DNA from: Candidatus Anderseniibacteriota bacterium
GTDB taxonomy: Bacteria > Patescibacteriota > Andersenbacteria > UBA10190
Direction of reading: 5' to 3'
NCBI GenBank assembly: GCA_016197005.1
Contig: JACPWO010000004.1
Span: forward strand, 70,305 to 134,304
Length of the DNA stretch: 64,000 bases
Part shown: in pieces, positions 7,527-32,153 of the stretch
Position numbering within the stretch: the first letter of the stretch is position 1
Layout: every line of letters begins with the position of its first letter
Notes under the pieces: model-generated
The model's input: only the letters and a program-made list of their open reading frames with translations
The model's database searches: none
What the model was told of the DNA's origin: nothing
Made by a program: the position numbers and the translations under genes

Positions 7527-7682
7527 GAATGCTCATTTACATAGGTTGGAGCAGAGGTGCCCCATATTTAGGATAGAAATCCTGTGCTGAGTGTGCTATG
7601 GTGTAGGTGACAAGGGAAGTCCAGATTTGCATGAATATGAGGATGAGAATGCCAAGCGGCATTTCTTTTTTATCTCACTCTC

Positions 7683-10693: not shown

Positions 10694-10875
10694 TTATGGC
10701 TAGAATGGTCACAATTCCATAAAGGCGCGTAATTTAGGCCATTGTGGCCATTGTTTTACTACCTGCACAGTTTAGGTAATCTGTGCAGTTTATGGCTGAC
10801 TTGCTGGCGTTTGTGGGTGAGGTAACATCGCGATGGTGCAAAGAATTGCACCATTAAAACCTATGATGCAGATAA
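10694..10875. promoter_or_regulatory. Intergenic region with three short perfect inverted repeats; possible integrase operator or att-like site
   Basis: 'GGCCATTGTGGCC', 'CTGCACAGtttaggtaatCTGTGCAG' (8-bp arms) and 'TGGTGCAaagaatTGCACCA' lie between the terminase and the tyrosine recombinase. Confidence 0.35.
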
Positions 10876-11457: not shown

Positions 11458-11712
11458 CCATTAAACTTTACTTGCCTATAAGTTGATTAATAAGGCACTA
11501 AGAGCCACAATAGTCATACAACTTAATTGCCTAAACCCCGCGAATTTAGCGAGGCATGGCAGCAAAATCAGGTCTAGGCCATTGGTGGTCTTCTGTTCAG
11601 CACCCTAGACCTGTCTATGCCCGAAAGGGTATAGGGCAACTGCGAAAGTGGTTGTCGCTGACGGGAGACCTCTTGTTGTTTTCCGTCGGATTAACCGGAT
11701 CAGGAAAACACA

Positions 11713-12840
11713 ATGGCAATAGTTATATCACAAAACGGCCGGAACGCAGTCAGGATCGATAAGTCCTCTTTTGAACAAGAGGATTACCTGCAGCGATACA
11801 TTTACGACAACCCCGACAGTATCCCGCTCTACGATATAAAGGAGGACATTCGCCTCCTTATTTTATCCCGCGAATTTCCTACCACCAGCGGCCCAATTGA
11901 CGCAATCGGCATCGACAAAGAGGGCGAGAACTACATCATCGAAACCAAGCTCTATAAAAATCCTGACAAGCGTACGGTCATCGCCCAAGCCCTGGATTAC
12001 GGCGCTGCGCTCTGGAAACACGCTAGCGACTTTAGCGAGTTTCTGGCCACGCTTGATACCCACACGCAGAAAGTATTCGGACTAAGTGCCGCCGATAAAA
12101 TTCAGGAGTTCTTCCAGCTGCCTACCGAAGACGCCATCGCCGTTATCGACAAAGCTCGCTCCAACCTCAACGATGGTGTTTTTCACTTCGTCGTTCTTAT
12201 GGACAAGCTGGATGACCGTCTCAAAGACCTCATCCTCTACGTCAACCAGAACAGCCAGTTCGATATCTACGCTGTCGAGCTGGAGTATTACAAGCACGAT
12301 ACCTACGAAATTATCATCCCGCGTATCTTCGGAGCAGAGGTTAAAAAGGATATCTCAACAAAGAAATCATCTGGACAACGCTGGGACTGGGATTCGTTTA
12401 AGCAACGCCTGGCCGAGTCCGGCGAGGAAGCAATCACCGCCGCCAGGCAAATCATCGACTGGGCAGAGGATAATAGTGTTTCCGTTGGCTGGATGACCAA
12501 CCAGATTGGCTCGTTTGTTCTTGGTTTTTCGGCTCCGGGCAAAAAAGTATTCTTTCCGTTCTCCGTGACCGGAGATGCTGTGATTTCCTGGAATACCCCG
12601 CACCAGGGGGACTACAGCCCAGTGCCATTTGATAGGCGGGAGAAGCGAGCCGAGATATTGGAGCGCCTGAGATCAATTAAGGGCGCAACTGTTGATGTGG
12701 AGAACGTGGATGGCTACAGCGGATTCAAACTGCCGCTCCAGGCGATGGTCAATGAAGAGACACGGCGTGAATTTTTCGCAGTGTGTTTATGGATCAAGGA
12801 AATGCTGAATCGACCGCTCCGATCCCATGTACAAACTTGA
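11713..12840 (+). CDS. PD-(D/E)xK nuclease-superfamily protein (NucS/Mrr-like core)
   Basis: 'GPIDAIGIDKEGENYIIETKLYKN' fits the D...(D/E)xK restriction-endonuclease-like motif. 375 aa; overlaps the next ORF by 14 nt. Confidence 0.4.
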   Translation: MAIVISQNGRNAVRIDKSSFEQEDYLQRYIYDNPDSIPLYDIKEDIRLLILSREFPTTSGPIDAIGIDKEGENYIIETKLYKNPDKRTVIAQALDYGAALWKHASDFSEFLATLDTHTQKVFGLSAADKIQEFFQLPTEDAIAVIDKARSNLNDGVFHFVVLMDKLDDRLKDLILYVNQNSQFDIYAVELEYYKHDTYEIIIPRIFGAEVKKDISTKKSSGQRWDWDSFKQRLAESGEEAITAARQIIDWAEDNSVSVGWMTNQIGSFVLGFSAPGKKVFFPFSVTGDAVISWNTPHQGDYSPVPFDRREKRAEILERLRSIKGATVDVENVDGYSGFKLPLQAMVNEETRREFFAVCLWIKEMLNRPLRSHVQT

Positions 12841-13435
12841 CGAGTATGAAGAGCTAAAGCGTAAGTATGGATCATATGGGAGTTGGGCAGTTTGGCGCCA
12901 TAACAATGAGAGCGATACATCAGTCATTGACGAGCATGTTGAGGAACTTCATTCTCGATTCATATTTCTGGGGTTGAACGTTTCTCAATCGCTAGGCAGC
13001 GCTGCCTGGGTAAATTTTCATGGCGGTAAGCATGCCCGGAAACTCAAGTATGCCCTCAACGATACAAAATTAAGGGGGTCGTACATTACCGATATTTTTA
13101 AAGACCTGCCCGCACCAAAATCAAGCGATATTGTGAAAATTTTGGCTGACGATCCGTCACTCATCACGCAGAATGTTGAGTTTTTTAAGCGGGAGATGGC
13201 AGACATCAGGGTGACAGCTGAGTCCGTGTTTGTTGTCCTCGGTACTCCCACCTCTTATATTTCAAGGTATTTTCGTACGTATTACCATCATAATTTCTCA
13301 AACCTCAAGTTCGTGAACTACTACCACTACGCATACTACGCTCTCACCGACAGTACATGGGTTGAGGGCCTCTGGAATGAACTTGGTGTAGAGGCTCGTT
13401 ATGACCATATCAGAGGGATGTATACCAAAGAGTAA
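12827..13435 (+). CDS. Hypothetical protein; weak resemblance to the UDG-superfamily motif arrangement
   Basis: 202 aa. 'FLGLNVSQSLG' and 'VVLGTPTSY' loosely resemble UDG motifs A and B; unverified. Confidence 0.3.
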   Translation: MYKLDEYEELKRKYGSYGSWAVWRHNNESDTSVIDEHVEELHSRFIFLGLNVSQSLGSAAWVNFHGGKHARKLKYALNDTKLRGSYITDIFKDLPAPKSSDIVKILADDPSLITQNVEFFKREMADIRVTAESVFVVLGTPTSYISRYFRTYYHHNFSNLKFVNYYHYAYYALTDSTWVEGLWNELGVEARYDHIRGMYTKE

Positions 13436-13472: not shown

Positions 13473-13501
13473 TTGACGTGGCTGCTGTGGTCGCATAGGA
13501 T
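13473..13501 (+). promoter_or_regulatory. Sigma70-like promoter for the defense operon
   Basis: TTGACG (13473-13478), 17-nt spacer, TAGGAT (13496-13501). The ATG at 13508 lies about 7 nt after the -10 element, which would make the mRNA leaderless. Confidence 0.4.
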
Positions 13502-13507
13502 GACCAT

Positions 13508-13801
13508 ATGAGTACTCTTAAACCTATTGGTGATTTACCAGCAGCACAGCAGCAAGCGTTGTTTGTTATCCTCCGTTTTCACCGACCGGGGTTTAGAACT
13601 TCAGAGATCCGGGACAAAGTGGGTAAAGATACTAGTGGCCGTTCTATTGGGGCGGTGCTGGGTGCGCTCTATCGCAATGGTTATCTTGAGAAAATCGCGG
13701 GCGGTAGGGATAAGCTGTGGAAGTTGGCAGCTCAGGTGGAGGAAACGCGCAATGAAGTGGCGCAACAGTTAGTGGAAGTTAAGAGCTATTGGAGCAAATA
13801 A
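13508..13801 (+). CDS. Small winged-helix DNA-binding protein (putative operon regulator)
   Basis: 97-aa protein with a wHTH-like core ('RSIGAVLGALYRNGYLEKI'). It is the first gene of the coupled operon. Confidence 0.4.
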   Translation: MSTLKPIGDLPAAQQQALFVILRFHRPGFRTSEIRDKVGKDTSGRSIGAVLGALYRNGYLEKIAGGRDKLWKLAAQVEETRNEVAQQLVEVKSYWSK

Positions 13802-13805
13802 TTCT

Positions 13806-16800
13806 ATGAGTTCTTTTATCATCACGAACGAAGGCACGAAGAATCTTAAAGGCAGGTTGTCTGAGCTTATCCAGAACAGCAAAGAGCTCAAATTTCTAGT
13901 GGGCTTCTTTTATTTTTCGGGTATTCGCGAACTATATGAAAGTTTGAAGGATATGCCTAATATTCAGGTGGACGTTTTAGTTGGTCTTAATGTAGACCGG
14001 GCGGTACATGGAATTGTGGAGTATGGCGACCAGACAAAAAACCTCACCGATCGGGAACGCTTTACTCGTTTTCTTGAATCCGTATCACGGTCAATAAACT
14101 CGAACGATTTTGATACCGAAGATTTTTACACCCAGATCAAGTATTTCTTACATCTCATCAAAGATGGCCGTTTACGCATTCGCAAAACCTATAACCCAAA
14201 TCACGCCAAGTTGTATATCTTCAAAATCAAAGACGATATCAAGCATTTAAAAGAGGCATTTTTTATCACAGGTAGCAGCAACCTGACGCGAGCTGGTTTA
14301 ATGTCACAGGAGGAGTTTAATGTTGAAATAAGCGATCATGGGGTCGGTGATGCCGAGGATTATTTTAAGCAGTTATGGGAAGAAGCTGTCAGGATTACGG
14401 AAAACGATGAGTTCAAGCGGCAACTCATTGACCTCATTGAGCGTAAGACGCTAGTTGCCGGGATAACCCCTTTTGAGGCTTACGCCCTCGTGCTCAAAAA
14501 CTACCTTGATTCAATTAGCCAAAAGCAACTGCGGAAAAGTATTCCAGAATTGCTGTCTAAGAAAGGTTACCAGCCCTATAAATATCAGCTTGATGCAGTG
14601 TCACAGGCACTTACAATAATCGAGAACTATAACGGCGTAATCGTGTCCGATGTTGTGGGCCTTGGTAAAAGTATTATCGCTGGAATGATCGGCCGAAGTC
14701 TCAATAAACGGGGGATCATTATTTGTCCACCTGGTTTGATTGGTGATCCGAATAAGAAATCAGGATGGGAAAAATATAAAGAGGATTTTGAACTTTACGA
14801 TTGGGAGATCAGATCATTGGGTATACCGAGCTTAAAACATACGCTGAAGCTCGTTCAGGAAAGTGATGAGTATGAGGTAGTGATAGTAGACGAGGCGCAT
14901 CGGTTTCGGAATCAGGACACGGAGGCCTATGAGTTACTGAGCAATATTTGTCGCAATAAGATCGTGATTCTACTGACAGCGACTCCCTTTAATAACTCGC
15001 CGGCTGACATATTCTCTTTGCTCAAACTTTTTGTTATACCCGGCAGATCGAAAATCACACTGGATAACCATTTAGACACTAAGTTCAAGGTGTATAACAA
15101 CGAATTCGATAAATTGTCGTATATCAGAAAAAATCATAGTTCTGCTAACCCGCAGAAACGGGGAAAAGCCCTCGCCTTTTATGAGAGTCTATTTGAATCT
15201 AAGTCAGTTGAGCTGAACGAGGTGCAACGGCGAGCGAAATACTTAGCAAACAGTATTCGTTCTGTCATTGAGCCGGTGCTTATTCGGCGCAATCGCATCG
15301 ATCTCAAACAAGACCCAGAATATTCAAAGGAAGTGTACGAGCTCTCTCAGGTTGATGATCCCAAAGAGCTGTTTTTTGAACTGACAAAGGAGCAAGCGAA
15401 TTTTTATGACAGAGTGATCAACAAATACTTCGGCGAGGAAGGGGAATTTCGTGGAGCTATATACCGACCATTTGTATATGAGGAGGGAATTAAGCCAGAG
15501 GATCAAAAGCGCGTGTTGGGGCTGGAGAAGAATTTTGAGTTTCAATCCCAGTCACAGCTTTACGACTTTATGCGGCGTTTAGTCGTCAAACGATTTGAAA
15601 GCTCCTTTGGCGCTTTCCGTCAAACCATCATGAACCTCGAAATGGTGACGGAAAAAATGCAGCAGTTTATCAAAAACTCGGATGGCAAATTCATTCTTGA
15701 TCGGAAGCTAATCGAGAAGATTTATGAAGAAGAACTGGATGTCATCGAGGAGGAAATAATTAAGTTTGAACAGAAACTAGGCGAAGGTAACTACCCAAAA
15801 TCCTACAAAGTGTATGACGTGAACTCTTTTAAAGAAAAGCAGCGCTTTTATGCTGATATTGAGGCTGATCTTAAGTTATATAGAAAAGTCAGAGATGAAC
15901 TTGAAGACCTTAAACTGGTGGACAACGATCCAAAACTAGCCGGGCTTATTACCGAAATTCGGAATATATTGAATGCTGATCATCCCTTGAGTGAGCCAGA
16001 ACGCAAGGTTGTTGTTTTTACCGAGTATACGGATACGGCCACCTATTTAGAGGACGAACTCGAGAAGCACTTCCCAGAGCAACTTTTAACGGTGGGCAAG
16101 TCTCTCCCCGCCAGTCGCATCAACGAAATACTGATGAACTTTGATGCCAGCTACCACGAGCAAGAAAATAAGTACCGCGTGTTGTTAGCAACCGATAAGA
16201 TTTCTGAGGGGTTTAACCTCAATCGGGCGGGTGCGATCATTAATTATGATATCCCCTGGAATCCTACACGTGTTATCCAGCGGGTTGGTCGAATCAATCG
16301 TATCAGTAAGAAAGTCTTTGAGCGGCTTCATATATACAATTTCTTCCCTACTATACAGGGATCGGACATTGTGAAGAGTAGACAGATTGCGGCCGACAAG
16401 ATGTTTTTGATTCACAATACTCTTGGCGAGGACTCAAAAGTGTTTGAATCGGATGAGAAGCCGACAGCGGCTAAGCTGTTTACAAAAATCATGCGCAATC
16501 CGGAAGCGCATGAAGAGGCGAGCTTTCAAACTAAAATCCGACAGAAATATTTTGAACTCGAGAAAAGCGCGCCTGATATTATTGGCCGTGTCGCGACACT
16601 GCCATCGCGGGTAAAGGTAGCCAAGCGCTACGAGGCTGATAATCTTCTTGTGTTTATCAAGAAAGGTCTTGGGTTCTTCGTGCGCGGCATTGTTAAGGAG
16701 GATGTAGTCGAGGAAATGCTTTTTGAAGAAGTTATTCATCACATTGAGTGCTCTAAAGAAGAACGAGCGGTGCAACTGAGCGAACGCTTTTGGGGTAGCT

Positions 16801-17180
16801 ATGAAGCGGTCAAGGAGTATAAGGACAAGACGAAGATCGCATCCAGTGAATTGAGCCTGGAGAAGAAAGCACTGAATAATCTTAAATCGTTGCAGGGCGA
16901 CCCAAGCCCTGATTTAGAGCTTCTGCTGCCCTTCATCCGTGACTTAGTTGAGGATTTGCTAGATTACAAAACCCTACCTGACTACACCCTGCGCCGCATT
17001 GCTAAACTTGATACACAGACGCGGGTGCCAGAGAAGCGACTTAAGATGATCCGCGAATTACAAGGGGTTCAATCTCAACTTGGGGTCGGATTTATGGAAA
17101 TAACTAAGCGCCGATTGGGTGAACTTCAGAATGAAGTAATCATTGCCATAGAGAACGTCACCCACTATGAGCAGAGATAA
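13806..17180 (+). CDS. PLD-family (single HKD) nuclease domain fused to an SNF2-family helicase, 1124 aa
   Basis: HKD motif 'NHAKLYIFK...ITGSSNLT'. SNF2 motifs: I 'VVGLGKSIIAG', II 'IVDEAHRFRN', III 'LLTATPFNNS', V/VI 'INYDIPWNPTRVIQRVGRINRI'. Confidence 0.85.
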   Translation: MSSFIITNEGTKNLKGRLSELIQNSKELKFLVGFFYFSGIRELYESLKDMPNIQVDVLVGLNVDRAVHGIVEYGDQTKNLTDRERFTRFLESVSRSINSNDFDTEDFYTQIKYFLHLIKDGRLRIRKTYNPNHAKLYIFKIKDDIKHLKEAFFITGSSNLTRAGLMSQEEFNVEISDHGVGDAEDYFKQLWEEAVRITENDEFKRQLIDLIERKTLVAGITPFEAYALVLKNYLDSISQKQLRKSIPELLSKKGYQPYKYQLDAVSQALTIIENYNGVIVSDVVGLGKSIIAGMIGRSLNKRGIIICPPGLIGDPNKKSGWEKYKEDFELYDWEIRSLGIPSLKHTLKLVQESDEYEVVIVDEAHRFRNQDTEAYELLSNICRNKIVILLTATPFNNSPADIFSLLKLFVIPGRSKITLDNHLDTKFKVYNNEFDKLSYIRKNHSSANPQKRGKALAFYESLFESKSVELNEVQRRAKYLANSIRSVIEPVLIRRNRIDLKQDPEYSKEVYELSQVDDPKELFFELTKEQANFYDRVINKYFGEEGEFRGAIYRPFVYEEGIKPEDQKRVLGLEKNFEFQSQSQLYDFMRRLVVKRFESSFGAFRQTIMNLEMVTEKMQQFIKNSDGKFILDRKLIEKIYEEELDVIEEEIIKFEQKLGEGNYPKSYKVYDVNSFKEKQRFYADIEADLKLYRKVRDELEDLKLVDNDPKLAGLITEIRNILNADHPLSEPERKVVVFTEYTDTATYLEDELEKHFPEQLLTVGKSLPASRINEILMNFDASYHEQENKYRVLLATDKISEGFNLNRAGAIINYDIPWNPTRVIQRVGRINRISKKVFERLHIYNFFPTIQGSDIVKSRQIAADKMFLIHNTLGEDSKVFESDEKPTAAKLFTKIMRNPEAHEEASFQTKIRQKYFELEKSAPDIIGRVATLPSRVKVAKRYEADNLLVFIKKGLGFFVRGIVKEDVVEEMLFEEVIHHIECSKEERAVQLSERFWGSYEAVKEYKDKTKIASSELSLEKKALNNLKSLQGDPSPDLELLLPFIRDLVEDLLDYKTLPDYTLRRIAKLDTQTRVPEKRLKMIRELQGVQSQLGVGFMEITKRRLGELQNEVIIAIENVTHYEQR

Positions 17181-19911
17181 ACTACAGGAGATTATCGATC
17201 AGTTCGATGCACATAAGATCGGCATTTTTTTTCGAACGCGTAGCGATGCCTTCGCAGAAGCACGGGAGCCACTTCAGGAATATAATGATGCAGTTTTTAG
17301 TGACTTTGAGCGTCTAGGAGAGTTTCGCTTTGACGAGACGCAGCGCCTCATTGTAGTTGCTGTCCGGGTGGGAGGTAACTTAACGGAGCGCTCAAGTAAG
17401 AAGGCACAGTACGACAAGGCTAAACGAATACTCAAGGATTTGGATGTCTTTGAGGGTGGAATATTTATTTTTTATGATACGGCTGGCAGTTTTCGATTTA
17501 GTTTGGTTTACGAGCGGAGTATAGGTACGCGGCGCACATGGAATAATTTTAGGCGTTTTACATACTTCGTTAGCAAGGAACTGCCCAATAAGACTTTCAT
17601 TAATCGAATTGGAGAAGGAGATTTCTCCAGCCTAAACAAAATAAGGGAAGCCTTCTCCATCGCGGCAGTTACGAATGATTTTTACCAGAGTTTTGTTCCG
17701 TACTTCGAGAAGATTTCAAAAGCTGCCCGAAGCACTATCGATGACAATGTTCGTAAGAAATTAGCACGAGATTTCGCCTTACTATTTGTAATTAGGGTAA
17801 TCTTTATTGGCTTTATTCAGAAGCGTAAATGGATTGGTGACGATGAGCAGTTTCTGCGGCATTTTTGGGAGGAGTATCGGCAGCAGTCCATGGGCGAGAA
17901 CCATTTTTACAAGCATTGGCTGGAGCCCCTTTTCTTTGAGGCACTAAACTCTCCCATTGGCCGGAAGGTGAAGTATGGTAATAATACATTTTCGCCGGCA
18001 ACAGAATCGGCGCTGCAAATGGCACCGTACTTGAATGGTGGTTTGTTTAAGCGCAAGAGAGGCGTCGATGACCAGAGTCTATTCATACCAGATGACGTTA
18101 TTGGTGAACTTTTTGATTGGTTATTCTCATACAACTTTACGATTGAGGAAAATACGCTCTATGACGAAGAACTGGAGTTAAACCCTGAGTTTTTAGGCAT
18201 TATTTTTGAACGACTCGTAAACAAGGCTGATGGAGCCGTGTATACGCCTCGGGTCGAAGTGGATTTTATGTGCCGCTTAAGCCTTGTTAAGTGGCTGGAC
18301 AAAAATACGCCTGAAGACATCCATTATCGAGATCTTTATGAGCTATTTTTTAGTGAGGTAGGTCGGGGACGCGGTGAGGATACCGACCAGAAGAAAGGAA
18401 GTTTTTCCGAACGTCAGGCACGAGAAATACTTGAACATCTTGAATCAATAACTATTTGTGATCCAGCAGTCGGTTCAGGAGCATTTCCTGTAGGAATGCT
18501 CCATATTATCGACGAGGTAGAGGAACACCTACGGCTGAAGATTAGTGACCCGGTAGCGCACCAAACGGCCTTTGATCGGAAAAAGCGCATTATAGGCTCT
18601 TCACTCTACGGCGTTGAGGTAAAAGAGTGGGCGGTCTGGATCACCCAACTGCGCTTGTGGATCACTCTTTTCATCGATGCACCAGATGATTTACGAAACT
18701 CGCTTGAGCCTATTTTACCTAGTCTTGATTTCAAGGTGCGTGCCGGAGACTCGTTGCTGCAGCGAATAGGCACAAAAATATTTCCCGTCGCTGGACATGC
18801 CAATGTATCGCAAGGTCTTAAGAAAAAGATTACTGAACTCAAGAAGCTCAAACTGGATTACTTTCAGAATAAGGCAGATCGTGATTTTATTATTCGCCAG
18901 CGCGAGCTAGCGCTGTACAGGGATATTCTGAATGCAGAAATCGACGAGCTCACTAAGACGCTTCGCATCCTAAGGGGCATAAAGCCAGATCAGCAGTCGT
19001 CCCTTTTTAGCAAGGAAATTCAACAACCAACACAGGCGCCATTAAGTCTCAATGCTGAGGAGGTTAAAAAGATTGAAAACCAAATTGCCGAGCTTCAAGG
19101 CCAGCAACGGTCTCTGTCTGAAGACCATCCCTTAATTTGGAATATTGAATTTGCTGAGATTTTTGCTGATCGGGACGGGTTCGATATTATTATTGGCAAC
19201 CCTCCGTACGTCAGGCAAGAGGATATAGGAGATCCCAATGGCAAGATTAAAGATCCCAAAGAATACAAAAAATTATTGCAGGAAATGGTACGGACTGATT
19301 TCCCGCGACAGTTTCCGAAGGGAGAAAAGATAGATGCTAAATCTGACCTCTATACCTATTTTTATATCCGATCGCTTAAGCTATTAAATCCGAACGGTGT
19401 ACTTACCTTTATCTGTTCAAACTCATGGCTCGATGTGGGTTATGGCGTTTGGCTACAAAAGTTTTTGCTCAAAAATGCGCCGATTCAATTCATTATTGAT
19501 AATCACGCCAAGCGTAGCTTTGAAGCGGCTGATATAAACACCATTATCTCAGTGATTGAGGCGCCACAAAAAAAGATTGATCCAGGCCATGTAGTTAAAT
19601 TTGTTGCCTTCAAAAAATCTTTTGAGGAAGTCATTTTTACTGAAAATTTGCGTGCTATCGATGAGGCTGATGCTGTTGTAAAGAATGAACGCTACCGGGT
19701 ATATCCCATGGCAACACAAAATTTGTGGGAGTCTGGTATGGAGTACTCCAGTGTCGAGCAAAAGAAGCTATCCGGCGGTCGGTACATTGGAGATAAGTGG
19801 GGAGGTAAATACCTGCGTGCACCTGATATTTATTTCACCATTTTGCGCAAGGGCGGTGTATTAACTAGCCAAAACTATGAAAGCACGTCACGAGAGAGAG
19901 AGAGAGAGTAA
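17167..19911 (+). CDS. Eco57I/PglX-type N6-adenine DNA methyltransferase, N-terminal and catalytic portion (914 aa; ORF closed by a stop right after a (GA)8 tract)
   Basis: Motif X 'AVYTPRVEVDFMCR', motif I 'ICDPAVGSGAFPVGML', motif IV 'IIIGNPPYVRQ'. The stop TAA at 19909 sits immediately after the (GA)8 run. Confidence 0.85.
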   Translation: MSRDKLQEIIDQFDAHKIGIFFRTRSDAFAEAREPLQEYNDAVFSDFERLGEFRFDETQRLIVVAVRVGGNLTERSSKKAQYDKAKRILKDLDVFEGGIFIFYDTAGSFRFSLVYERSIGTRRTWNNFRRFTYFVSKELPNKTFINRIGEGDFSSLNKIREAFSIAAVTNDFYQSFVPYFEKISKAARSTIDDNVRKKLARDFALLFVIRVIFIGFIQKRKWIGDDEQFLRHFWEEYRQQSMGENHFYKHWLEPLFFEALNSPIGRKVKYGNNTFSPATESALQMAPYLNGGLFKRKRGVDDQSLFIPDDVIGELFDWLFSYNFTIEENTLYDEELELNPEFLGIIFERLVNKADGAVYTPRVEVDFMCRLSLVKWLDKNTPEDIHYRDLYELFFSEVGRGRGEDTDQKKGSFSERQAREILEHLESITICDPAVGSGAFPVGMLHIIDEVEEHLRLKISDPVAHQTAFDRKKRIIGSSLYGVEVKEWAVWITQLRLWITLFIDAPDDLRNSLEPILPSLDFKVRAGDSLLQRIGTKIFPVAGHANVSQGLKKKITELKKLKLDYFQNKADRDFIIRQRELALYRDILNAEIDELTKTLRILRGIKPDQQSSLFSKEIQQPTQAPLSLNAEEVKKIENQIAELQGQQRSLSEDHPLIWNIEFAEIFADRDGFDIIIGNPPYVRQEDIGDPNGKIKDPKEYKKLLQEMVRTDFPRQFPKGEKIDAKSDLYTYFYIRSLKLLNPNGVLTFICSNSWLDVGYGVWLQKFLLKNAPIQFIIDNHAKRSFEAADINTIISVIEAPQKKIDPGHVVKFVAFKKSFEEVIFTENLRAIDEADAVVKNERYRVYPMATQNLWESGMEYSSVEQKKLSGGRYIGDKWGGKYLRAPDIYFTILRKGGVLTSQNYESTSRERERE

Positions 19912-20917
19912 GGCTGGCGCCGCTAGGAACCCTGGCGCACGTTCGGCGCGGCTTCACAACCGGGGCGAACGAGTTCTTCTATCTGAAGGATATAACCGAT
20001 CAGCTAAACTCGTCCGATTAGGTGATGTTGCTGATGTTCGTTTTGGTATTAAAACTGGGGCAAATGAATTTTTCTTTCTTGAGGATATAACTGAATCTAT
20101 GAATTTTGAGGATGTTAAGAACGAGATAAAAAATTTGGGTCAATATAAAACGTTGGCTCAAATTAAGGCCGCTGGTCTTTGTATTACTCAAAACGATGCC
20201 GGGGATTATTGGCTAATAGAGAAGAAATTTTTAAAGCCTGCAGTTAAAAGTCCTCGCGAATGCAACAATATTTTAGTTGATCAAATTAAACTCAAATATA
20301 AGTTGCTGCTGTGCTCAAAAACAAAAGAAGAATTAGAAAATACAGCAACTTTGCAATATATAAGCTGGGGCGAGAAGGAGGCGTTTGATCAAAGGGCGAG
20401 CACAAAAGGTAGAAACAGATGGTGGGATTTGGGAAAAAGGAAACCCGCTGGATTGAATTTCAATTATTTAATAAACGACGTTGGTGATACTTATGTTGGC
20501 TCAGTCTTTGTAAGTGATAATTTTCATGAGATTCATACAGAAAAACACCTGGAAGTGTTTCTGAACTCCACTGTTTTTTGGCTATTCCAAAATTTGTCTG
20601 GGAGGACTAGTTTTGGCGGCGGGTTGTTAAAAATACAAACCTATGAGCTTGAAAGAATATTTGTGTTAGAGGTTGAAAATAAATTTGATTTTCCGGTACT
20701 TAAGCGAGCACCAAAATCAGTATTTAAAGAATGCGGAATTAATCCCGAATCAACCATTCTTATTGAAGAGCAAGAACCAAATCCGCTACCGGATCGCGCA
20801 GAGCTGGATAAAGTTGTTTTCGACGCGTTGGAGCTCACCGAAGATGAACGCAAGGACGTATATCGCGCTGTTTGCAGCCTTGTCTGGAACAGGATTAGTA
20901 AAGCACAGAGTGTGTAA
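19877..20917 (+). CDS. Methyltransferase C-terminal target-recognition portion (TaqI_C-like), separated from the catalytic part by a frameshift at the (GA)8 tract
   Basis: 'LGDVADVRFGIKTGANEFFFL' is the TaqI-like C-terminal specificity-domain signature of Eco57I/PglX-type enzymes. The two ORFs together (~1250 aa) match PglX-class length. Confidence 0.7.
   Translation: MKARHERERESKAGAARNPGARSARLHNRGERVLLSEGYNRSAKLVRLGDVADVRFGIKTGANEFFFLEDITESMNFEDVKNEIKNLGQYKTLAQIKAAGLCITQNDAGDYWLIEKKFLKPAVKSPRECNNILVDQIKLKYKLLLCSKTKEELENTATLQYISWGEKEAFDQRASTKGRNRWWDLGKRKPAGLNFNYLINDVGDTYVGSVFVSDNFHEIHTEKHLEVFLNSTVFWLFQNLSGRTSFGGGLLKIQTYELERIFVLEVENKFDFPVLKRAPKSVFKECGINPESTILIEEQEPNPLPDRAELDKVVFDALELTEDERKDVYRAVCSLVWNRISKAQSV
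19892..19907 (+). repeat. (GA)8 dinucleotide simple-sequence repeat at the junction of the two methyltransferase ORFs; candidate phase-variation tract
   Basis: 'cacGAGAGAGAGAGAGAGAGtaa' read directly. Upstream ORF frame is 1 mod 3 and downstream ORF frame is 2 mod 3; (GA)9 would fuse them. Confidence 0.9.
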
Positions 20918-20919
20918 AT

Positions 20920-21471
20920 ATGAGCGACGAATCATTACCACCGTTCGTTGGCGAAAGTGCTTTATCGCCTATTCGATTGACTGAAGAACAAGAAGATCTG
21001 TGCCAACGGCTGGATGACTGGCATGGGCTGGATGGGCTCAAAGTTAAACCATCAGAGATGTTTCGCGGAGCGGTTTATGCGATGCGACAAGAATGCAAAA
21101 GCAATCCCGATCGGCTTGCCCAAGCAGCAAATTCTCTTCGTGAAATTCTTTATCCATTTCAGAGCCCCCAGGTAAAAAATGTATCTGAAAAGCAAGAAAA
21201 GGCGTTTAAAAAATACGGGTCAGTTCGAGTAGATGAGGAGTTCTTTAAAAAAAGTGTAAAGCCGCTCTATGAAGACCTTAATGACGTTGCTCATCACGGA
21301 GTTGCAGCAAAGAGGATCGACTTTTTAACTATTACAGACGCGGAGCTTGTAAAATTATTAGCAGACTTTGAGAAAATTATGCTTGCTGCATTGGCGCGGC
21401 AACTTGATGTTCATCAAGAGATCGATGAGTTTTTAACGGCTGGGCCCGATCAGGTGGGCACACATAATTAA
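20920..21471 (+). CDS. Hypothetical 183-aa helical protein (operon component)
   Basis: Start is 3 nt after the upstream stop; no recognisable motifs. Confidence 0.4.
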   Translation: MSDESLPPFVGESALSPIRLTEEQEDLCQRLDDWHGLDGLKVKPSEMFRGAVYAMRQECKSNPDRLAQAANSLREILYPFQSPQVKNVSEKQEKAFKKYGSVRVDEEFFKKSVKPLYEDLNDVAHHGVAAKRIDFLTITDAELVKLLADFEKIMLAALARQLDVHQEIDEFLTAGPDQVGTHN

Positions 21472-21474
21472 TTT

Positions 21475-24474
21475 ATGAATAAGAAAAGTCAATCTCAGAG
21501 CAAAGCTGAAAAAGTTCGAGAACTTATTGGTTTGAATTTTGATGCACGACAGTATTTTTTCACCAAAGCTGATGAACAATTGCTCGGCTGGCTATGGGCA
21601 AATGGATTGCTTGATGCAATAAAAGAGAAGCCTGCAGATCAAACGCGCTATTGGTATAGAACGCCAGAACTTCACTATCTCGCAACCGTTGCTAAAAAAG
21701 AACCGGCAAAGGTGGTTGATATTATGCTACAGGTACCAATATCACCCGAGACATTCAGCCCGGAGGTAACTGATAGATTTCTTCGCATATGTGTTGATCT
21801 GCCGGCCGACCAGCTTTCTCGACTAGTGACTAAAATTCGGGATGAGAAATGGGTAAATTTAATGGGAGGATTCAATCAGTGGGGGTTTGAATACAATAAA
21901 ATGCTGCAAACACTTGCGGGGGCAAAGGACTATAACAGTATGCTGGTTTTAGCAGAAGCAATGTTGGCGGTGCGTCCTAAGAAGGAAGTTGCAGAAATAG
22001 AGCACCGTTGGCGCGTAAGCGAAAATTGTTTCTATATCAAAGACCTTTCAGAAACCGGTATATTCGATAAACTCACCTCAGTCGATGATCAGAAAGTTGA
22101 TGTAGCACTTGGTCTGGCTGTTAGAACCATCGGAGCAGTGATCAACTTGGGGGATCCGTCAAAGGATAAGGAGTTTTCAGTCGATGATCATCTCTGCCTT
22201 ATTGATGTCGATTTTTTCTCACTAAAGGCGCAACAGAAAAAGTATTCATCAGATCGGGAAGATATGCGCGAACTAGCGGTTACGATAAAGGTTCTGACGC
22301 AGCGTCTAATAGGAAATAGATGTGATAAAGTCGACGAAGTTCGTTCGCTATATACTACGCACTTTAATTCGTTGCCCGATAGTCAGGCTGTGTGGCGGCT
22401 GCGTTTGTTTGTTCTTAGTTTGTGCCCCAAGGTATTTGCAAGTGATTTAAAAACCGCCTTCTATAAAATATTTGAGACCGAAAAATACCAGGAATACACA
22501 TTAGGCGCCGAATTTTCTCGGGCACTGCGTGCCGGTTTTTCGGCCTTAGCTGAATCAGATCAGCGCAATTATGTGAAGCAGGTATTGGCATACTTCGGCC
22601 AGCCAGGCACGGATAAAGAAAAAAATGAACCACGGAAGCATTCCGGATGGAAAATCTTATCGAGCATCTACTTACATCTTACGGATGAGGAGAAAGCGCA
22701 ATGCGAACGGGTATTTGGCAGAACGTGTGACGAAAAATATGAACCTGAGCCGGCTATTGGGACTATGCGTGGTGGTTCCGTCAGACCCCGAGGCCCTATA
22801 ACGCCTGAGGAGTTTGGAGAGCTTCCAATTTCAGAAATTGCGAATAATCTTCGCACTTTGTGGACACCACAAAGACTGCGTGAGCAAAATACTGGAGATG
22901 ATTTTCTTAACCCCCTCAATGCGGAGGGCGCTGGTGACTTATTTAAAAATGATATCCCTAAACGGTTACAAGACTATGCCAATGACGCAAAACTGTTTTT
23001 CGAGAGAGATGTACTCGACCAGAACTATACCTATGCATTTATGCGTGGGCTACAAGAAGCAATACATGCGAACAGAGAGGAAGCAGCCAAAATTACGTGG
23101 GAAGGTTTGATTACACTCTTACAGAATATTACCGAGGCCGGGACGACCAAACCTTTTGATCAAAGAAAAAGAGAGCGCAGTTTTCATGATGGCTGGCTTA
23201 CCAGCTGGGATGAAGTACATTCAGTTATGGCTGATGTTATAAAAGAGTTATTAAGTGAGTCTGGCGGGCACAAAGTAATCAATTATTCCAAGCATCGTGC
23301 AGATTTATTGCCAATTTTAAGTTACCTTCTTGCATATCCTGATCCGGTACCAGCCGATGAAAAGATTGAAACTGCAACAAGTACCACTACGTCTCCAGGA
23401 GAGGAAACACAAATCGCCGATCCTTTTTCAATGGCCATAAACTCAGTGCGCGGTCGCGCGTTTGAGGTTCTACCGCTTATTGCCTATCTGGATGGCAAGA
23501 GGTTTTCTAAAGAGGATCAGGTAAAAATCTCCCCTGACGTAAAGCAATTATATGAGACAACTCTCAGCAATGAAAATACGAGAGCAGTTATGTTTCTTTT
23601 CGGTCATTATCTACCCACATTCTATTTCCGCGATAAAGTTTGGATAGGGCAACTCTTGCCGCAAATCTTTCCGGATCAACCAGAAAAAGAATATCTTTAT
23701 ACCGCTGCGTGGGAAGGGTACTTGGCTAATAATCTTTATGAAGAGTTATTTTTTGATCCCGCAATCCAGAAGATATATGAGCGCGGACTCGTCCTTCCCA
23801 ATGTTGATGATTTGAAACAGAAGCGCTTCAAAGAACCAGATGAGGGCATTGCTTCTCATTTTGGTTTGGCTTTTATGTATTACGAAGGATTTGGATTTGA
23901 CCACCCACTACTCACGGCATTTTGGAGTAAAAATGATCCGGAACAACATGCAGACTTTATCAGTTTTCTTGGAAGAGCATTTGTATCAGGTGATAACGCT
24001 CAGGCAAACGAATTGTTAAAGAATGAGCCGCGTGCGAAAGCAAGATTGATAGAAGTTTGGGATTGGATGCTTGAGCATTATACGGATATTCGGCCACTTA
24101 CTGAATTCGGCGTTTGGATCAATTTGAGAAAAAACATATTTGACACTCGATGGCTTGCTGAGCATATCAGAAAGACTCTTGAGAAAACGAAAGGAAAACT
24201 AGATTGGGATTACGGACTCATGATGTCCATTGAGCAATTAGCAAAACTTGCACCAGAGGACACGCTTATCATTGCCCGGTTATATTTACTTGAAGGTGGG
24301 GTGCGTACAGGTGGTAATCGCGCACCAATTCATTTAGATCAAGAATGGTTTGAGGCAATGAAGACGCTGTATGGTAATAGCAGTACACGATCAGGTAGTT
24401 ACGCTCTCATTAATGACCTTGTTCAGGATGGAGGGATCACCTTCTGGAAGCTTAAAGAAGTAATTAACGATTAA
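21475..24474 (+). CDS. Large (999 aa) alpha-helical protein of unknown function (operon component)
   Basis: No Walker A or helicase, nuclease or phosphatase motifs found by eye. Translationally coupled on both sides. Confidence 0.5.
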   Translation: MNKKSQSQSKAEKVRELIGLNFDARQYFFTKADEQLLGWLWANGLLDAIKEKPADQTRYWYRTPELHYLATVAKKEPAKVVDIMLQVPISPETFSPEVTDRFLRICVDLPADQLSRLVTKIRDEKWVNLMGGFNQWGFEYNKMLQTLAGAKDYNSMLVLAEAMLAVRPKKEVAEIEHRWRVSENCFYIKDLSETGIFDKLTSVDDQKVDVALGLAVRTIGAVINLGDPSKDKEFSVDDHLCLIDVDFFSLKAQQKKYSSDREDMRELAVTIKVLTQRLIGNRCDKVDEVRSLYTTHFNSLPDSQAVWRLRLFVLSLCPKVFASDLKTAFYKIFETEKYQEYTLGAEFSRALRAGFSALAESDQRNYVKQVLAYFGQPGTDKEKNEPRKHSGWKILSSIYLHLTDEEKAQCERVFGRTCDEKYEPEPAIGTMRGGSVRPRGPITPEEFGELPISEIANNLRTLWTPQRLREQNTGDDFLNPLNAEGAGDLFKNDIPKRLQDYANDAKLFFERDVLDQNYTYAFMRGLQEAIHANREEAAKITWEGLITLLQNITEAGTTKPFDQRKRERSFHDGWLTSWDEVHSVMADVIKELLSESGGHKVINYSKHRADLLPILSYLLAYPDPVPADEKIETATSTTTSPGEETQIADPFSMAINSVRGRAFEVLPLIAYLDGKRFSKEDQVKISPDVKQLYETTLSNENTRAVMFLFGHYLPTFYFRDKVWIGQLLPQIFPDQPEKEYLYTAAWEGYLANNLYEELFFDPAIQKIYERGLVLPNVDDLKQKRFKEPDEGIASHFGLAFMYYEGFGFDHPLLTAFWSKNDPEQHADFISFLGRAFVSGDNAQANELLKNEPRAKARLIEVWDWMLEHYTDIRPLTEFGVWINLRKNIFDTRWLAEHIRKTLEKTKGKLDWDYGLMMSIEQLAKLAPEDTLIIARLYLLEGGVRTGGNRAPIHLDQEWFEAMKTLYGNSSTRSGSYALINDLVQDGGITFWKLKEVIND

Positions 24475-24476
24475 AT

Positions 24477-25235
24477 ATGTCCGAATACTACAACCCAAAT
24501 CGAGGCTCCAAATGGAATTACGGCGGTGATCAATGGAAGCTCTCTCGCTCCAAGATTGATCTCTTTCTCGAATGTCCTCGCTGTTTTTATATCGACAACA
24601 AGCTCGGCGTAAAGCGTGTACCAGGCTTTCCTTTTGCGTTAAATAGTGCAGTCGATCATCTCCTTAAGCTGGAATTTGATATCCATCGTGCTAATGGAGA
24701 GCAGCACCCGCTACAAAAAGAATACGGCATTGATGCCCGGCCAGTAGCGCATGAAGAATTGGACGAGTGGCGCTATAACTTCGGTGGGGTTAAACATCTG
24801 CATAAACCAACTGGCATGCTGGTCACAGGAGCCATTGATGACTTATGGATCAATGGCAATGAAGAATATGTAGTGGTTGACTATAAGGCCACAGCCAAAG
24901 AAGAAGCGGTGAAAGAACTCGATAAGGAATGGCAAGAGGGCTACAAGCGCCAAATGGAAGTGTATCAGTGGCTGTTGCGCCAGAATGGACTCAAGGTTTC
25001 TGATACTGGTTATTTCGTGTACTGCACCGGAAAGTTAGACGGTAAAGCGTTTGATAAACGCATTGATTTTGATGTCCATCTTATTGCCTACGAAGGAAAC
25101 GATGATTGGGTGGAGGGTACATTACTAAAGATTAAGGAATGCCTGGAAGAGAATGATGTACCAGAATCCGGCCCTGGTTGTGACCATTGCTCATATTGGA
25201 ATGCTCGTCGTTTATACGAACCTGAATCAAAATAA
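24477..25235 (+). CDS. Cas4/RecB-like PD-(D/E)xK nuclease with a four-Cys cluster
   Basis: N-terminal 'CPRC'; 'GAIDDLW...VVVDYKAT' (D...DxK); 'RQMEVYQW' (QxxxY); C-terminal 'CDHCSYW'. Confidence 0.7.
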   Translation: MSEYYNPNRGSKWNYGGDQWKLSRSKIDLFLECPRCFYIDNKLGVKRVPGFPFALNSAVDHLLKLEFDIHRANGEQHPLQKEYGIDARPVAHEELDEWRYNFGGVKHLHKPTGMLVTGAIDDLWINGNEEYVVVDYKATAKEEAVKELDKEWQEGYKRQMEVYQWLLRQNGLKVSDTGYFVYCTGKLDGKAFDKRIDFDVHLIAYEGNDDWVEGTLLKIKECLEENDVPESGPGCDHCSYWNARRLYEPESK

Positions 25236-25239
25236 AAAT

Positions 25240-27843
25240 ATGAATTCATATGTACTCGGTTTTCAGGAAATCGATAAAACAAAACTTGCAATGGTCGGGG
25301 GTAAAGGCGCCAATCTTGGGGAACTATTCAAGATTAAGGGGATAAAAGTGCCAGAGGGCTTTTGCGTTACTACCGAAGCGTATAAAAAAATAACCGAAAA
25401 TAATCAGAGGTTTAATCACTTGCTGGATGAATTAACGCGTCTTAAGGCAGAAGAGAGAGCAACTATCAGCGCAATCAGTGCCAAAATCCGAAAGGTCATC
25501 GAAGAAACAGCTATTCCAAAAGGCATCAGTAATGACGTTATCCATCATCTTAAACAACTTAGTGAAAAAAATACCTACGCAGTACGATCCAGCGCAACCG
25601 CGGAGGATTTACCGACGTCCTCCTTTGCAGGTCAGCAGGATACATATTTAAACGTAATCGGGAAGGAGGCAATCCTAAAGCATATCAGCAAGTGCTGGGC
25701 ATCGCTCTTTACGAACCGAGCGGTGATTTACCGAATGCAGAATGGTTTCGACCACGGCCGAGTATATCTTTCCGTGGTCATCCAGAAAATGATTTTTCCG
25801 CAGGCGGCGGGAATCATGTTTACTGCAGATCCTGTCACAGGCAACAGGAAGATTGTGTCTATAGATGCCAGCTTCGGACTTGGTGAAGCACTGGTTTCGG
25901 GCGTGGTGAATGCTGATAACTACAAAGTGCGTGATGGTAAAATTATCGATAAGAAGATCCCGGCCAAGAAAGTGGCCATCTACGCACTCAAAGAAGGCGG
26001 CACGAAAGAAGAAGAGATAGGGTCCGATAAGCAGAACGCACAAACACTTATGGACGAACAGATTGTAGAGCTTGAGCGCATAGGCAGAACCATCGAAGCG
26101 CATTTCGGTCGTCCCCAGGACATCGAATGGTGTCTGGCTGATGATGTTTTTTCTATTGTCCAGAGTCGGTCGATCACAACGTTATTCCCGATCCCGGAAG
26201 CGACTGATCAGAAAAATCACGTCTATGTATCAGTCGGTCATCAACAGATGATGACTGACGCCATGAAGCCGCTCGGACTCTCCATGTGGCAGTTACTGGC
26301 CGCTCGCCCCATGTACACAGCCGGCGGACGGTTATTTGTGGATGTCGCGGAACAACTGGCTTCGCCTGCCGGCAGAAACATTCTCGTTAATGTTCTGGGC
26401 AAATCCGATCCGCTGATGAAAGATATATTCACGACTCTCCTGGAGAGGGGACATGTACAGGCTCAGACGGAAGAGATCTCGGCAACCCCCGCGAAAGGTC
26501 CTCCGCTTCCGGATTATCGGACACTGAAGCAGTACGATCCGGCAATCGTGCATGAGTTGATAGAGCGCAGTCAGACATCCATAGATCAGTTGAAGAAGAC
26601 CATTCACACAAAAGAAGGAGTGAATGTCGTGGAGTTCATTCTGGAAGATATCCAGAAGTTACGGCAGTTTATATCCAATCCGCAAAATTTCGGGGCGATT
26701 ATGACGGCTATGAATGCGGCCTCGTGGATCAATGAAAAAATGATGGAGTGGTTGGGTGAAAAAAATCTGGCAGACACACTGTCGCAATCCGTCCCGCACA
26801 ATGTCACAGCGGAAATGGGTCTGGCGCTCCTGGATATCGCAGATGCCATTCGTTCGTACCCGGCAGTTATTGAGTATCTGCAACAGGTGAACGATGACAG
26901 TTTTCTGGATGGGCTCATGGGGTTTGACGGAGGGAAGCATGCTCGTGATGTTCTTTCTGATTTTCTCCGTACATACGGCATGCGGTGTGTCGGGGAGATC
27001 GATATCACTAGAACCCGTTGGAGTGAAAAACCGACGACGCTTCTCCCTGTTATTCTTAGTAACATTAAAAACTTTGAACCCGGTGAAAGTAAGCGGAAGT
27101 TTGAGCAGGGGCGGGAGGAAGCAATGAAAAAAGAACAGGAATTAATCGAGCGATTGAAACAGCTGCCCGATGGCAAGGAAAAAGCGCAGGAAACAAAACG
27201 CATGATCGACCTGGTTCGGAATCTGGCCGGTTATCGTGAATATCCAAAATACGCCATTGTCAGTTGTTACTTCGTGTACAAGCAAGCCTTGATGAAAGAA
27301 GCCGAGCGCCTGGTGCAGGCACATGTCATTCAGGACAAACAAGATATTTATTATCTCACTATCCAGGAACTGCGTGATGCGATGCGCACACAGACAGCGG
27401 ATCAAGAGCTCATCAACAAGCGAAAAGACGAGTTCGCATTCTACGAGAAAATCACGCCGCCCCGCGTGATGACATCCGAGGGGGAAATTGTGACAGGCAG
27501 CTACAATCGGGAAAATCTCCCGGCCAATGCCATTGTCGGTCTGCCTGTTTCTTCAGGGGTCATCGAAGGACGTGCCCATGTCATCTTCCGCATAGAAGAT
27601 GCCGATCTGGAAGAGGGAGACATATTGGTCACTCCTTTTACGGACCCTAGCTGGACACCATTGTTCCTATCCATAAAAGGCTTGGTCACTGAAGTGGGCG
27701 GACTGATGACCCACGGAGCAGTGATCGCACGTGAATATGGCTTACCGGCAGTTGTCGGAGTAGAAAATGCTACCAAACTGATAAAAGATGGGCAACGAAT
27801 TCGCGTGCACGGAACAGAAGGGTATGTAGAAATCCTGATTTAG
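25240..27843 (+). CDS. PEP-utilising enzyme family protein with rifampin-phosphotransferase-like architecture (N-terminal ATP-grasp/PPDK_N, C-terminal mobile His domain)
   Basis: N-terminal 'LAMVGGKGANLGEL'; C-terminal 'GGLMTHGAVIAREYGLPAVVGV' (swivel-His domain) at the extreme C-terminus and no TIM-barrel domain. Start ATG 25240 is 5 nt after the upstream stop. Confidence 0.75.
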   Translation: MNSYVLGFQEIDKTKLAMVGGKGANLGELFKIKGIKVPEGFCVTTEAYKKITENNQRFNHLLDELTRLKAEERATISAISAKIRKVIEETAIPKGISNDVIHHLKQLSEKNTYAVRSSATAEDLPTSSFAGQQDTYLNVIGKEAILKHISKCWASLFTNRAVIYRMQNGFDHGRVYLSVVIQKMIFPQAAGIMFTADPVTGNRKIVSIDASFGLGEALVSGVVNADNYKVRDGKIIDKKIPAKKVAIYALKEGGTKEEEIGSDKQNAQTLMDEQIVELERIGRTIEAHFGRPQDIEWCLADDVFSIVQSRSITTLFPIPEATDQKNHVYVSVGHQQMMTDAMKPLGLSMWQLLAARPMYTAGGRLFVDVAEQLASPAGRNILVNVLGKSDPLMKDIFTTLLERGHVQAQTEEISATPAKGPPLPDYRTLKQYDPAIVHELIERSQTSIDQLKKTIHTKEGVNVVEFILEDIQKLRQFISNPQNFGAIMTAMNAASWINEKMMEWLGEKNLADTLSQSVPHNVTAEMGLALLDIADAIRSYPAVIEYLQQVNDDSFLDGLMGFDGGKHARDVLSDFLRTYGMRCVGEIDITRTRWSEKPTTLLPVILSNIKNFEPGESKRKFEQGREEAMKKEQELIERLKQLPDGKEKAQETKRMIDLVRNLAGYREYPKYAIVSCYFVYKQALMKEAERLVQAHVIQDKQDIYYLTIQELRDAMRTQTADQELINKRKDEFAFYEKITPPRVMTSEGEIVTGSYNRENLPANAIVGLPVSSGVIEGRAHVIFRIEDADLEEGDILVTPFTDPSWTPLFLSIKGLVTEVGGLMTHGAVIAREYGLPAVVGVENATKLIKDGQRIRVHGTEGYVEILI

Positions 27844-32139: not shown

Positions 32140-32153
32140 GGGGGGTGATCTGT

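Follow-up and report, generated by a model that had tools for sequence, protein, structure and literature searches.

Several described immune systems contain the kinds of protein considered here. In MANTIS (Gao_RL, BREX-related type 2), the methylase MtsC gives the target, and MtsD, in which a phospholipase D (PLD) nuclease is joined to a superfamily 2 (SF2) ATPase, forms a dimer with one shared PLD active site; the system restricts inverted pairs of unmodified sites best (bioRxiv 10.64898/2026.09.23.753747). A TPR-like sensor is common to Avs7 and Dsr1 (defence-associated sirtuin 1) and also occurs without the STAND module, accompanied by NADase, nuclease, kinase or HEPN-like effectors, and both SeAvs7 and EcDsr1 are triggered by the phage major capsid protein (2026 preprint, PMC12803255). 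Here we examine a block of co-directional genes at 13.5-25.2 kb of a stretch of 64,000 nucleotides (nt), referred to as the window, from Candidatus Anderseniibacteriota bacterium (assembly GCA_016197005.1, contig JACPWO010000004.1, positions 70,305 to 134,304). An original prediction, made from the letters alone, took this block for one new DISARM/BREX-like system. We consider it likely that it is a stack of three separable defence modules, probably co-transcribed, at the end of an integrated mobile element of this member of the Patescibacteria.

We favour three modules because the genes of the block fall into groups that occur apart elsewhere. Module A consists of a 1124-amino-acid (aa) protein with PLD and SNF2 domains (13806..17180; assigned by Pfam and PADLOC) and an adenine methylase that is divided here between a 914-aa N-terminal, catalytic part (17167..19911; Pfam and PADLOC) and a 346-aa open reading frame (ORF) holding the target-recognition domain (TRD; 19877..20917). 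Module B pairs a 183-aa all-alpha protein (20920..21471), a predicted effector and candidate nuclease, with a 999-aa alpha-solenoid protein (21475..24474), a predicted sensor or scaffold, and module C is a 252-aa four-Cys nuclease of the RecB/Cas4 PD-(D/E)xK type (24477..25235). In all 12 homologous PLD-SNF2 loci with readable downstream sequence (L007-L009, L092-L097, L099-L101), an Eco57I-class methylase gene follows within a few nt 3' of the PLD-SNF2 gene, and relatives of the 183-aa, 999-aa and Cas4-like proteins were found in none of them. The PLD-SNF2 gene and its methylase are a fixed two-gene unit, the 183+999 pair recurs behind many types of restriction-modification (R-M) genes, and the Cas4-like gene lies 3' of the pair in only three of 48 loci. 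On this neighbourhood evidence the single DISARM/BREX-like system was rejected. Of the earlier claim that the genes form one unit, the tightly packed operon stands, the positions and junctions of its seven co-directional plus-strand ORFs (overlaps of 14 or 35 nt, or gaps of 2-4 nt) being as first given; the single system does not, since the modules occur apart.

No catalogued DISARM or BREX subtype fits the block (PADLOC, NCBIfam), as the original prediction had held, and the absence of DrmA and DrmB equivalents that it noted was borne out by Pfam and PADLOC scans of the block and the other large ORFs of the window. In these scans DUF1998 (DrmB) was not found, the sole match to a DrmA model was partial and confined to the C-terminal part of the helicase in the PLD-SNF2 protein, and no gene matched PglZ or BrxC. 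The block resembles DISARM class 1 (DrmA, DrmB, DrmC, DrmD, DrmMI) in combining an SNF2 ATPase (like DrmD), a PLD nuclease (like DrmC) and an adenine methylase, but it lacks both core genes, those of the DrmA helicase and the DUF1998 protein DrmB, and its PLD and SNF2 domains are fused; against the NCBIfam DrmD models NF038317 and NF038318, the PLD-SNF2 protein scores 159.6 and 88.6 bits, the cut-offs being 610 and 950. Unlike BREX, the block has neither the PglZ phosphatase nor the BrxC/PglY ATPase, and its methylase reaches 43.2 bits against the PglX model BREX_1_MTaseX, which has a cut-off of 500. MANTIS is the nearest mechanistic precedent that we found for module A; it too places a target-supplying N6-adenine methylase beside a separate single-HKD PLD/SF2 ATPase protein. 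MANTIS, however, requires the DUF499 AAA+ ATPase MtsA and the small MtsB, both absent from the block (no DUF499 match with Pfam or PADLOC, there or among the other large ORFs of the window); moreover, the ATPase in the window is of SNF2 type, and the partial match of the PLD-SNF2 protein to NCBIfam phospholipD_antiphage (4e-35) scores 121, far under the cut-off of 1100.

The fusion of PLD and SNF2 domains in one polypeptide, proposed from the translation, was confirmed by Pfam matches to PLDc_2 (residues 20-191), SNF2-rel_dom, ResIII and Helicase_C, and the motifs 'HAKLYIFK...GSSNLT', 'GLGKSI', 'DEAH', 'TATP' and 'QRVGRINR' are all present. Most of the protein (residues 110-859) is matched by the PADLOC 'HKD+Snf2' candidate model C3a139 (8.6e-35); the PADLOC models for DISARM DrmD, BREX helicase, HmaA and DpdE match just the C-terminal helicase lobe, and the nearest relatives of solved structure are all SNF2 remodellers. 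Homologues of about 1120 aa number more than 5000 and are also known from Dehalococcoides mccartyi. We predict that the protein is a restriction/translocase subunit. SauUSI and PbeA are likewise fusions of an SF2 ATPase to a single-HKD PLD nuclease at the N-terminus, and they act, or are predicted to act, as an ATP-dependent restriction component; SauUSI, however, has its own TRD and targets modified DNA, whereas the window protein pairs with a methylase, and PbeA has a CxC ABC ATPase and a DndE-like protein as partners, neither of which accompanies the window protein.

The partner was correctly recognized from its 'DPAVGSGAF' and 'NPPY' motifs as a gamma-class N6-adenine methylase of the Eco57I type. 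Its 914-aa part matches Pfam Eco57I (1.6e-31, 110 bits, cut-off 25.3) and MmeI_Mtase (35.5, cut-off 27), and among PADLOC models the type IIG ones (1e-49) fit far better than those for DrmMI, which match partially (7e-23). A Pfam scan found no nuclease domain in the methylase N-terminus. The TaqI_C-like TRD was also rightly called, the 346-aa ORF matching the C-terminal (TRD) region of the PADLOC type II methylase model MTase_II (3.4e-16) and, as a precomputed Pfam match, M_Eco57I_C. A gamma-class Eco57I/MmeI-type catalytic domain with a C-terminal TRD is shared with the type ISP enzymes LlaGI and LlaBIII and the type IIG/IIL enzymes Eco57I and MmeI, and module A has the same functional parts as type ISP enzymes, namely nuclease, ATPase, methylase and TRD. 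It differs from these enzymes in that the parts are distributed over two (here three) polypeptides, with nuclease and ATPase on the separate 1124-aa protein; its nuclease is PLD rather than Mrr/PD-(D/E)xK, and its ATPase is of SNF2 type.

Taken together, the domains suggest that module A is an ATP-dependent R-M pair resembling types ISP and III. Its methylase with TRD would recognize a short asymmetric site and methylate adenine in it; at an unmodified site, the methylase would recruit the PLD-SNF2 protein, which would then translocate on DNA, driven by ATP. Because the PLD-SNF2 protein has a single HKD motif, cutting would presumably take place only after two protomers had paired into one PLD active site. 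We infer all of these steps by analogy with MtsC and MtsD of MANTIS, SauUSI, BfiI and the type ISP enzymes. Literature searches returned no experimental study of, and no named system for, the pair of PLD-SNF2 protein and Eco57I-class methylase.

The 914-aa and 346-aa ORFs are not two normal genes but one methylase gene split by an insertion of about 150 nt (19855..20005, plus strand), placed by alignment with the methylases of L008 and L056. Homologous methylases in L007, L008 and L056 are single ORFs of 1105-1187 aa; those of L008 (Komeilibacteria) and L056 (Woesebacteria) are each one protein of 1185-1187 aa, in which '...KYLRAPDIFFTILxKG' abuts 'xxKLVKLGxxAxxKFGIKTGANDFFYL' and the TRD is contiguous with the catalytic part (36% identity for L008 and 41% for L056). 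At this junction the window has 49 extra residues, and the 914-aa ORF ends just ahead of the TRD. The insertion holds a (GA)8G tract at 19892-19908 and an out-of-frame copy, higher in G+C, of the junction motif ('VRLAPLGTLAHVRRGFTTGANEFFYLKDITDQLNSSD', then stop; frame 0, 19908-20021), which repeats the start of the real TRD a few codons further on. The first ~43 residues of the 346-aa ORF are read-through of the insertion and the remainder is the TaqI_C/M_Eco57I_C-type TRD; the NCBI annotation has only a 272-aa version. Addition of one GA unit gives an uninterrupted methylase-TRD ORF of 1250 aa; with one unit fewer, the ORF has 950 aa and terminates in the remnant. Assembly error was ruled out as the cause, because the interrupted state is identical in four public records (two sequencing runs and two NCBI MAG, i.e. 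metagenome-assembled genome, records) and neither the +GA nor the -GA product is present in a collection of 15 billion proteins. The insertion resembles a scar left by imprecise recombination with another allele, perhaps during a TRD swap.

Since the interruption falls between catalytic domain and TRD, module A is most likely off or decaying in this genome. Loss of methylase or TRD would disable restriction as well wherever the methylase supplies target recognition, as in type III, type ISP and MANTIS, and would thus leave the cell in a safe state. Two other explanations have to be weighed. Type I and BcgI-type enzymes have separate specificity subunits, and it is conceivable, if somewhat unlikely, that the 914-aa catalytic and 346-aa TRD polypeptides make up a functional three-subunit module A in the same manner; the TRD ORF starts from an ATG of its own (19877) that lies within the end of the upstream ORF, and the state shared by both runs and both MAG records is compatible with a working arrangement. 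Against it, all close methylase homologues are single ORFs, the first ~43 residues of the TRD ORF stem from an out-of-frame reading of a duplicated motif, no obvious ribosome-binding site is seen ahead of 19877 when the sequence is read, and the insertion resembles a recombination scar. The second explanation regards (GA)8G as a phase-variation switch, at which slipped-strand changes would toggle the methylase and the target recognition of restriction within a population. The tract is the sole dinucleotide repeat of at least seven units in the 64 kb, with none expected in shuffled sequence, and it lies exactly at the junction of catalytic domain and TRD, where a single extra unit yields the full 1250-aa frame; module A could in principle be switchable by such a +2 nt change. 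Nevertheless, both public runs have the same tract length and no length variant was found among public assemblies, homologous methylases have no such tract, and a linker of 49 residues in the restored protein would stem from out-of-frame sequence. Phase variation is hence possible but unsupported, and we think it unlikely.

Turning to module B, Pfam gave no match for its 183-aa or its 999-aa protein, and scans with Pfam, PADLOC and NCBIfam revealed neither a SIR2 nor an NTPase domain in either of them. The suggestion that both lack detectable catalytic motifs was half right: the 999-aa protein is a homologue of Dsr1-type sensors, and the 183-aa family has an invariant Arg and His. The 999-aa protein is also not devoid of matches, as it hits the PADLOC Dsr1 model at 4.6e-16; 29 of 43 family members match this model (best 1e-27), and it is the C-terminal half of the 999-aa protein that aligns with the C-terminal part of the profile. 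No relative was detectable for the N-terminal 440 residues. A distant match falls within a STAND NTPase. The protein has hundreds of full-length homologues, all of them unannotated, and a profile search of 1.84 billion representatives returned 426 clusters at E<=1e-30 and 2324 at E<=1e-3; the figure of ~426 clusters for the 183+999 cassette refers to clusters defined at 50% identity. Among 185,579 species genomes, 97 stretches encode relatives of the 999-aa protein, and the 80 loci that were kept are nearly all from MAGs, mostly of Patescibacteria, Caldilineaceae and Nitrospirales with few others. A plasmid collection contained only distant sensor relatives, and four sensor loci were found on viral contigs, one of them in a PLD-SNF2 context. 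With the profile evidence in mind, the 999-aa family is best placed within the Avs7/Dsr1 sensor family, as a distant, split member, and we predict an alpha-solenoid sensor or scaffold. It is like Dsr1/Avs7 in that its C-terminal half is homologous to the Dsr1 sensor region and fused homologues have the order effector, then sensor; unlike them, the window pair has no SIR2 or STAND NTPase, its putative effector being the separate 183-aa all-alpha protein, and its distribution is confined to uncultured lineages.

The family itself indicates that the two proteins of module B work as one unit, because among 81 non-duplicate loci the small upstream gene, separate in 52, is fused N-terminally to the sensor in 19 (the other 10 are mostly truncated), so that these homologues consist of an N-terminal effector and a helical sensor. 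Iterated hidden Markov model searches assigned the partner slot to the 183-aa type in 60 of 71 loci and to unrelated proteins in the remaining 11, and on the family tree the partner is replaced even between sister sensors. Effector swapping of this pattern is typical for Avs, CBASS and Dsr-type systems, and it is the exchangeable slot that makes the 183-aa protein look like an effector. Six of the 11 replacement partners have a strongly hydrophobic N-terminal helix (L011 9315-9932; L017 9345-9959; L032 9240-9959; L042 9325-9966; L064 1472-2194; L070 9240-9926), and those of L025 (8774-9898) and L050 (470-1537) have His...Cys motifs that may point to a CHAT/caspase-like nature. The partners in L025 and L019 gave no matches to PDB sequences; nor did a profile of the 183-aa family, which is marked by invariant R74 and H125 and many conserved polar residues. 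We regard the 183-aa protein as a candidate nuclease effector, for which a HEPN-like identity is no more than a lead.

If the homology to Dsr1 sensors is a guide, the most likely ligand of the 999-aa solenoid is a structural protein of the phage, for instance the major capsid protein. The 183-aa effector, probably a nuclease, would be held inactive until the sensor is triggered, and triggering would result in abortive infection. Here as in the other modules, we infer every biochemical activity and trigger, whereas the gene structures, the homologies, the modularity across loci, the fusion and exchange of the partner gene and the interrupted methylase are observed.

The cassette of 183-aa and 999-aa genes occurs in a wide range of settings. 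In 52 loci a close gene on the same strand lies upstream, and by Pfam about 21 of these neighbours belong to R-M systems, at least six kinds being represented. Ten loci have Eco57I-class methylases (mostly with TaqI_C and in some cases with an HSDR_N nuclease; one has MmeI and one a type ISP C-terminal domain), five have type III Res, two have Vsr, two have N6_N4 methylase, and DpnII and HaeII occur in one each. CBASS precedes the cassette once, and several cassettes appear to stand alone. The nearest relative of the window pair, in L006 (86% DNA identity), lies behind a type III Res-like gene, and the match spans exactly from the start codon of the 183-aa gene to 72 nt into the Cas4-like gene, which indicates that the cassette moves as a unit between R-M operons. 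Downstream neighbours are mixed (PDDEXK_1 in three of 48 loci, Mrr_cat in two of 48); directly 3' of the cassette we observed other genes of defence type, namely a DUF4238 gene in L006 (6459-7088), an Mrr_cat gene with a topoisomerase-type zinc ribbon in L001 (13019-13723) and an Mrr_cat protein in L003 (14107-15594). The full gene order of the window is repeated once, in a Woesebacteria MAG (L056), at low identities of 52% for the PLD-SNF2 protein, 58% for the methylase, 55% for the Cas4-like protein and 42% for the 999-aa protein; this single recurrence speaks for the original prediction. In L056 an extra 215-aa ORF (8827-9474) lies between the intact methylase and a fused 183+999 homologue.

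Such neighbours raise the question whether the pair is a dedicated accessory of R-M systems in general, co-expressed from the R-M operon, for instance as a second-layer abortive-infection module or as a guard set off by the failure or inhibition of restriction. The share of R-M genes among immediate upstream neighbours, their variety, junctions that are mostly overlaps or gaps of at most 5 nt, and the recurrence of the association in unrelated branches of the sensor tree all speak for this. On the other side, R-M genes are missing from the directly upstream position in roughly half of the loci or more, the CBASS-linked and apparently stand-alone cassettes do not fit, and R-M genes are the commonest defence genes, so that adjacency may reflect crowding in defence islands. 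We consider the general accessory role doubtful. More speculative, and rather improbable to our minds, is a specific form of this idea, in which the cassette would be an abortive module sensing a phage protein (e.g. capsid), wired repeatedly into the 3' ends of R-M operons of at least six types so as to restrict first and abort if restriction fails, and in the PLD-SNF2/methylase/Cas4-like context forming a coordinated system; in a stronger version, the sensor may monitor the state of the R-M complex and guard against anti-restriction. We prefer to regard the 183+999 pair as a separable module.

The reading of the Cas4-like protein as a four-Cys PD-(D/E)xK nuclease holds: the 252-aa protein has a PDDEXK_1 domain, the CxxC...CxxC arrangement and the motifs 'VDYK' and 'QMEVY'. 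PDDEXK_1 is the only model passed (53.1 bits, cut-off 22); the Cas4 models stay below their cut-offs (Cas_Cas4, 19.3 against 22.7; TIGR00372, 27 against 65), and no cas genes were present among the scanned neighbours (CRISPR arrays not searched for). In the window, L056 and L025, this gene comes after the pair; L006 and L061 have 5' remnants of it in that position. A paralogue on another contig of the same MAG (L090 8001-8753; GCA_016178385.1, JACOTL010000006.1), with ~80% DNA identity to 24464-25141 of the window, lies downstream of a gene for a 1592-aa SF1 (AAA_11/AAA_12) helicase and one for a WYL-domain protein. The Cas4-like gene behaves as a promiscuous gene at the tail of defence operons, either an accessory or standing alone. 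About 10 nt ahead of its start codon are also conserved in the L090 paralogue, and a second paralogous stretch, at a SHOCT-domain gene region, links 31637-32313 of the window with L090 1-685 (74% DNA identity).

Several points weigh against the three-module stack and the roles proposed for its parts. Translational coupling at all junctions leaves room for functional cooperation, and PLD-SNF2, methylase and cassette recur together in six of 81 loci (the window, L027, L056, L068, L077 and L085) and on the viral contig L108. The enrichment of R-M neighbours is a plain count with no formal background. The Dsr1 match covers just the C-terminal half of the 999-aa protein, and its phage trigger is extrapolated, by analogy, from distant homologues. 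For the 183-aa protein, the fold and Pfam signals behind the roles of effector and nuclease are weak. HEPN RNases are marked by a four-helix core with an Rx4-6H motif where the last core helix begins; against assigning the 183-aa protein to them, its RQxDxH motif, located where the last helix begins, is limited to one subfamily, and hhalign of its family against E. coli RnlA was negative. Finally, the split methylase and TRD could be functional, as in two-subunit BcgI-type or type I arrangements. An integrated DISARM/BREX-like system made up of all six or seven genes, in which the 183-aa, 999-aa and Cas4-like proteins would be obligatory partners, a reading consistent with the overlapping or near-abutting stops and starts, the shared order in L056 at 42-58% identity and the recurrence of PLD-SNF2, methylase and pair in the other five loci, is very unlikely given that PLD-SNF2 and methylase stand alone in all 12 of their own homologous loci, that the pair elsewhere follows type II, IIG, MmeI-like, ISP-like or type III R-M genes or CBASS, or stands alone, that PLD-SNF2-linked sensors are scattered over a family tree of mixed genomic contexts with the window's sister cassette in a type III context, that the Cas4-like gene is rare, and that DrmA, DrmB, PglZ and BrxC are missing.

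No current concept is overturned by the three-module stack, because its parts belong to known kinds. The pair of PLD-SNF2 protein and Eco57I-class methylase is very widespread, with thousands of homologues, those of Dehalococcoides included, yet apparently unstudied. It appears to be a minimal two-gene relative of MANTIS and DISARM without their extra ATPases, and it would allow a test of which MANTIS/DISARM parts are needed for the discrimination of self from non-self. The 183+999 cassette, which is unnamed, extends the Dsr1/Avs7 sensor family by a split form without STAND and SIR2 and with an exchangeable partner; it occurs mainly in Patescibacteria and other uncultured phyla, about whose immune repertoires little is known. 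The recurrence of the cassette, translationally coupled, behind many kinds of R-M genes would be a concrete, testable case of layered immunity in one operon, and this R-M coupling of the sensor cassette is, in our view, the most interesting open point.

As to its borders, the block has a G+C content of 0.41-0.45, compared with 0.47-0.52 in the surroundings, and identical block proteins are recorded in two NCBI MAGs named Candidatus Andersenbacteria and in two sequencing runs. A 97-aa ORF (13508..13801, plus strand) ends 4 nt ahead of the PLD-SNF2 gene. Its sole match is a weak one to Penicillinase_R (BlaI-type winged helix-turn-helix, E=0.01), which tentatively points to a possible small winged-helix regulator, and tblastn gave no match to it in the homologous loci searched. 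The consensus-like promoter proposed at 13473-13501 (9 of 12 positions) was rejected and carries no evidential weight, since such matches are not above chance (18 in the region compared with 23.7 in shuffled sequence). At the other end, the next ORF, at 25153-27843, belongs to the flank; it encodes a homologue of rifamycin phosphotransferase/PEP synthase and lies outside the unit because its profile match begins only at residue 30.

The mobile-element and defence-island context of these tightly packed, co-directional defence-type genes, which had also been proposed, was upheld by the genes upstream: a large serine recombinase (905-2587, minus strand), a DUF3987 protein (3637-5250, minus), a primase CHC2 zinc-ribbon protein (5247-5921, minus), an N6_N4 methylase (7683-8927), an AAA_30 protein (9155-10693), a short, 193-aa tyrosine recombinase (10876-11457) and two ORFs without assignment (11713-13435). 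This element (905-13435) may carry the defence block as cargo. Directly 3' of the block, 25240-27843 (plus strand) encodes a full-length protein of the rifamycin-phosphotransferase/PEP-synthase family, which scores 1443 bits against NCBIfam RIF_Ptrans_rph (cut-off 999) and is above the cut-offs of PEP synthase models too. Further along the window, a 785-aa ORF (51632-53989, plus strand) joins G6PD_N/G6PD_C with NAD_binding_2 and 6PGD domains and appears to be a fusion of two pentose-phosphate enzymes, glucose-6-phosphate dehydrogenase and 6-phosphogluconate dehydrogenase.

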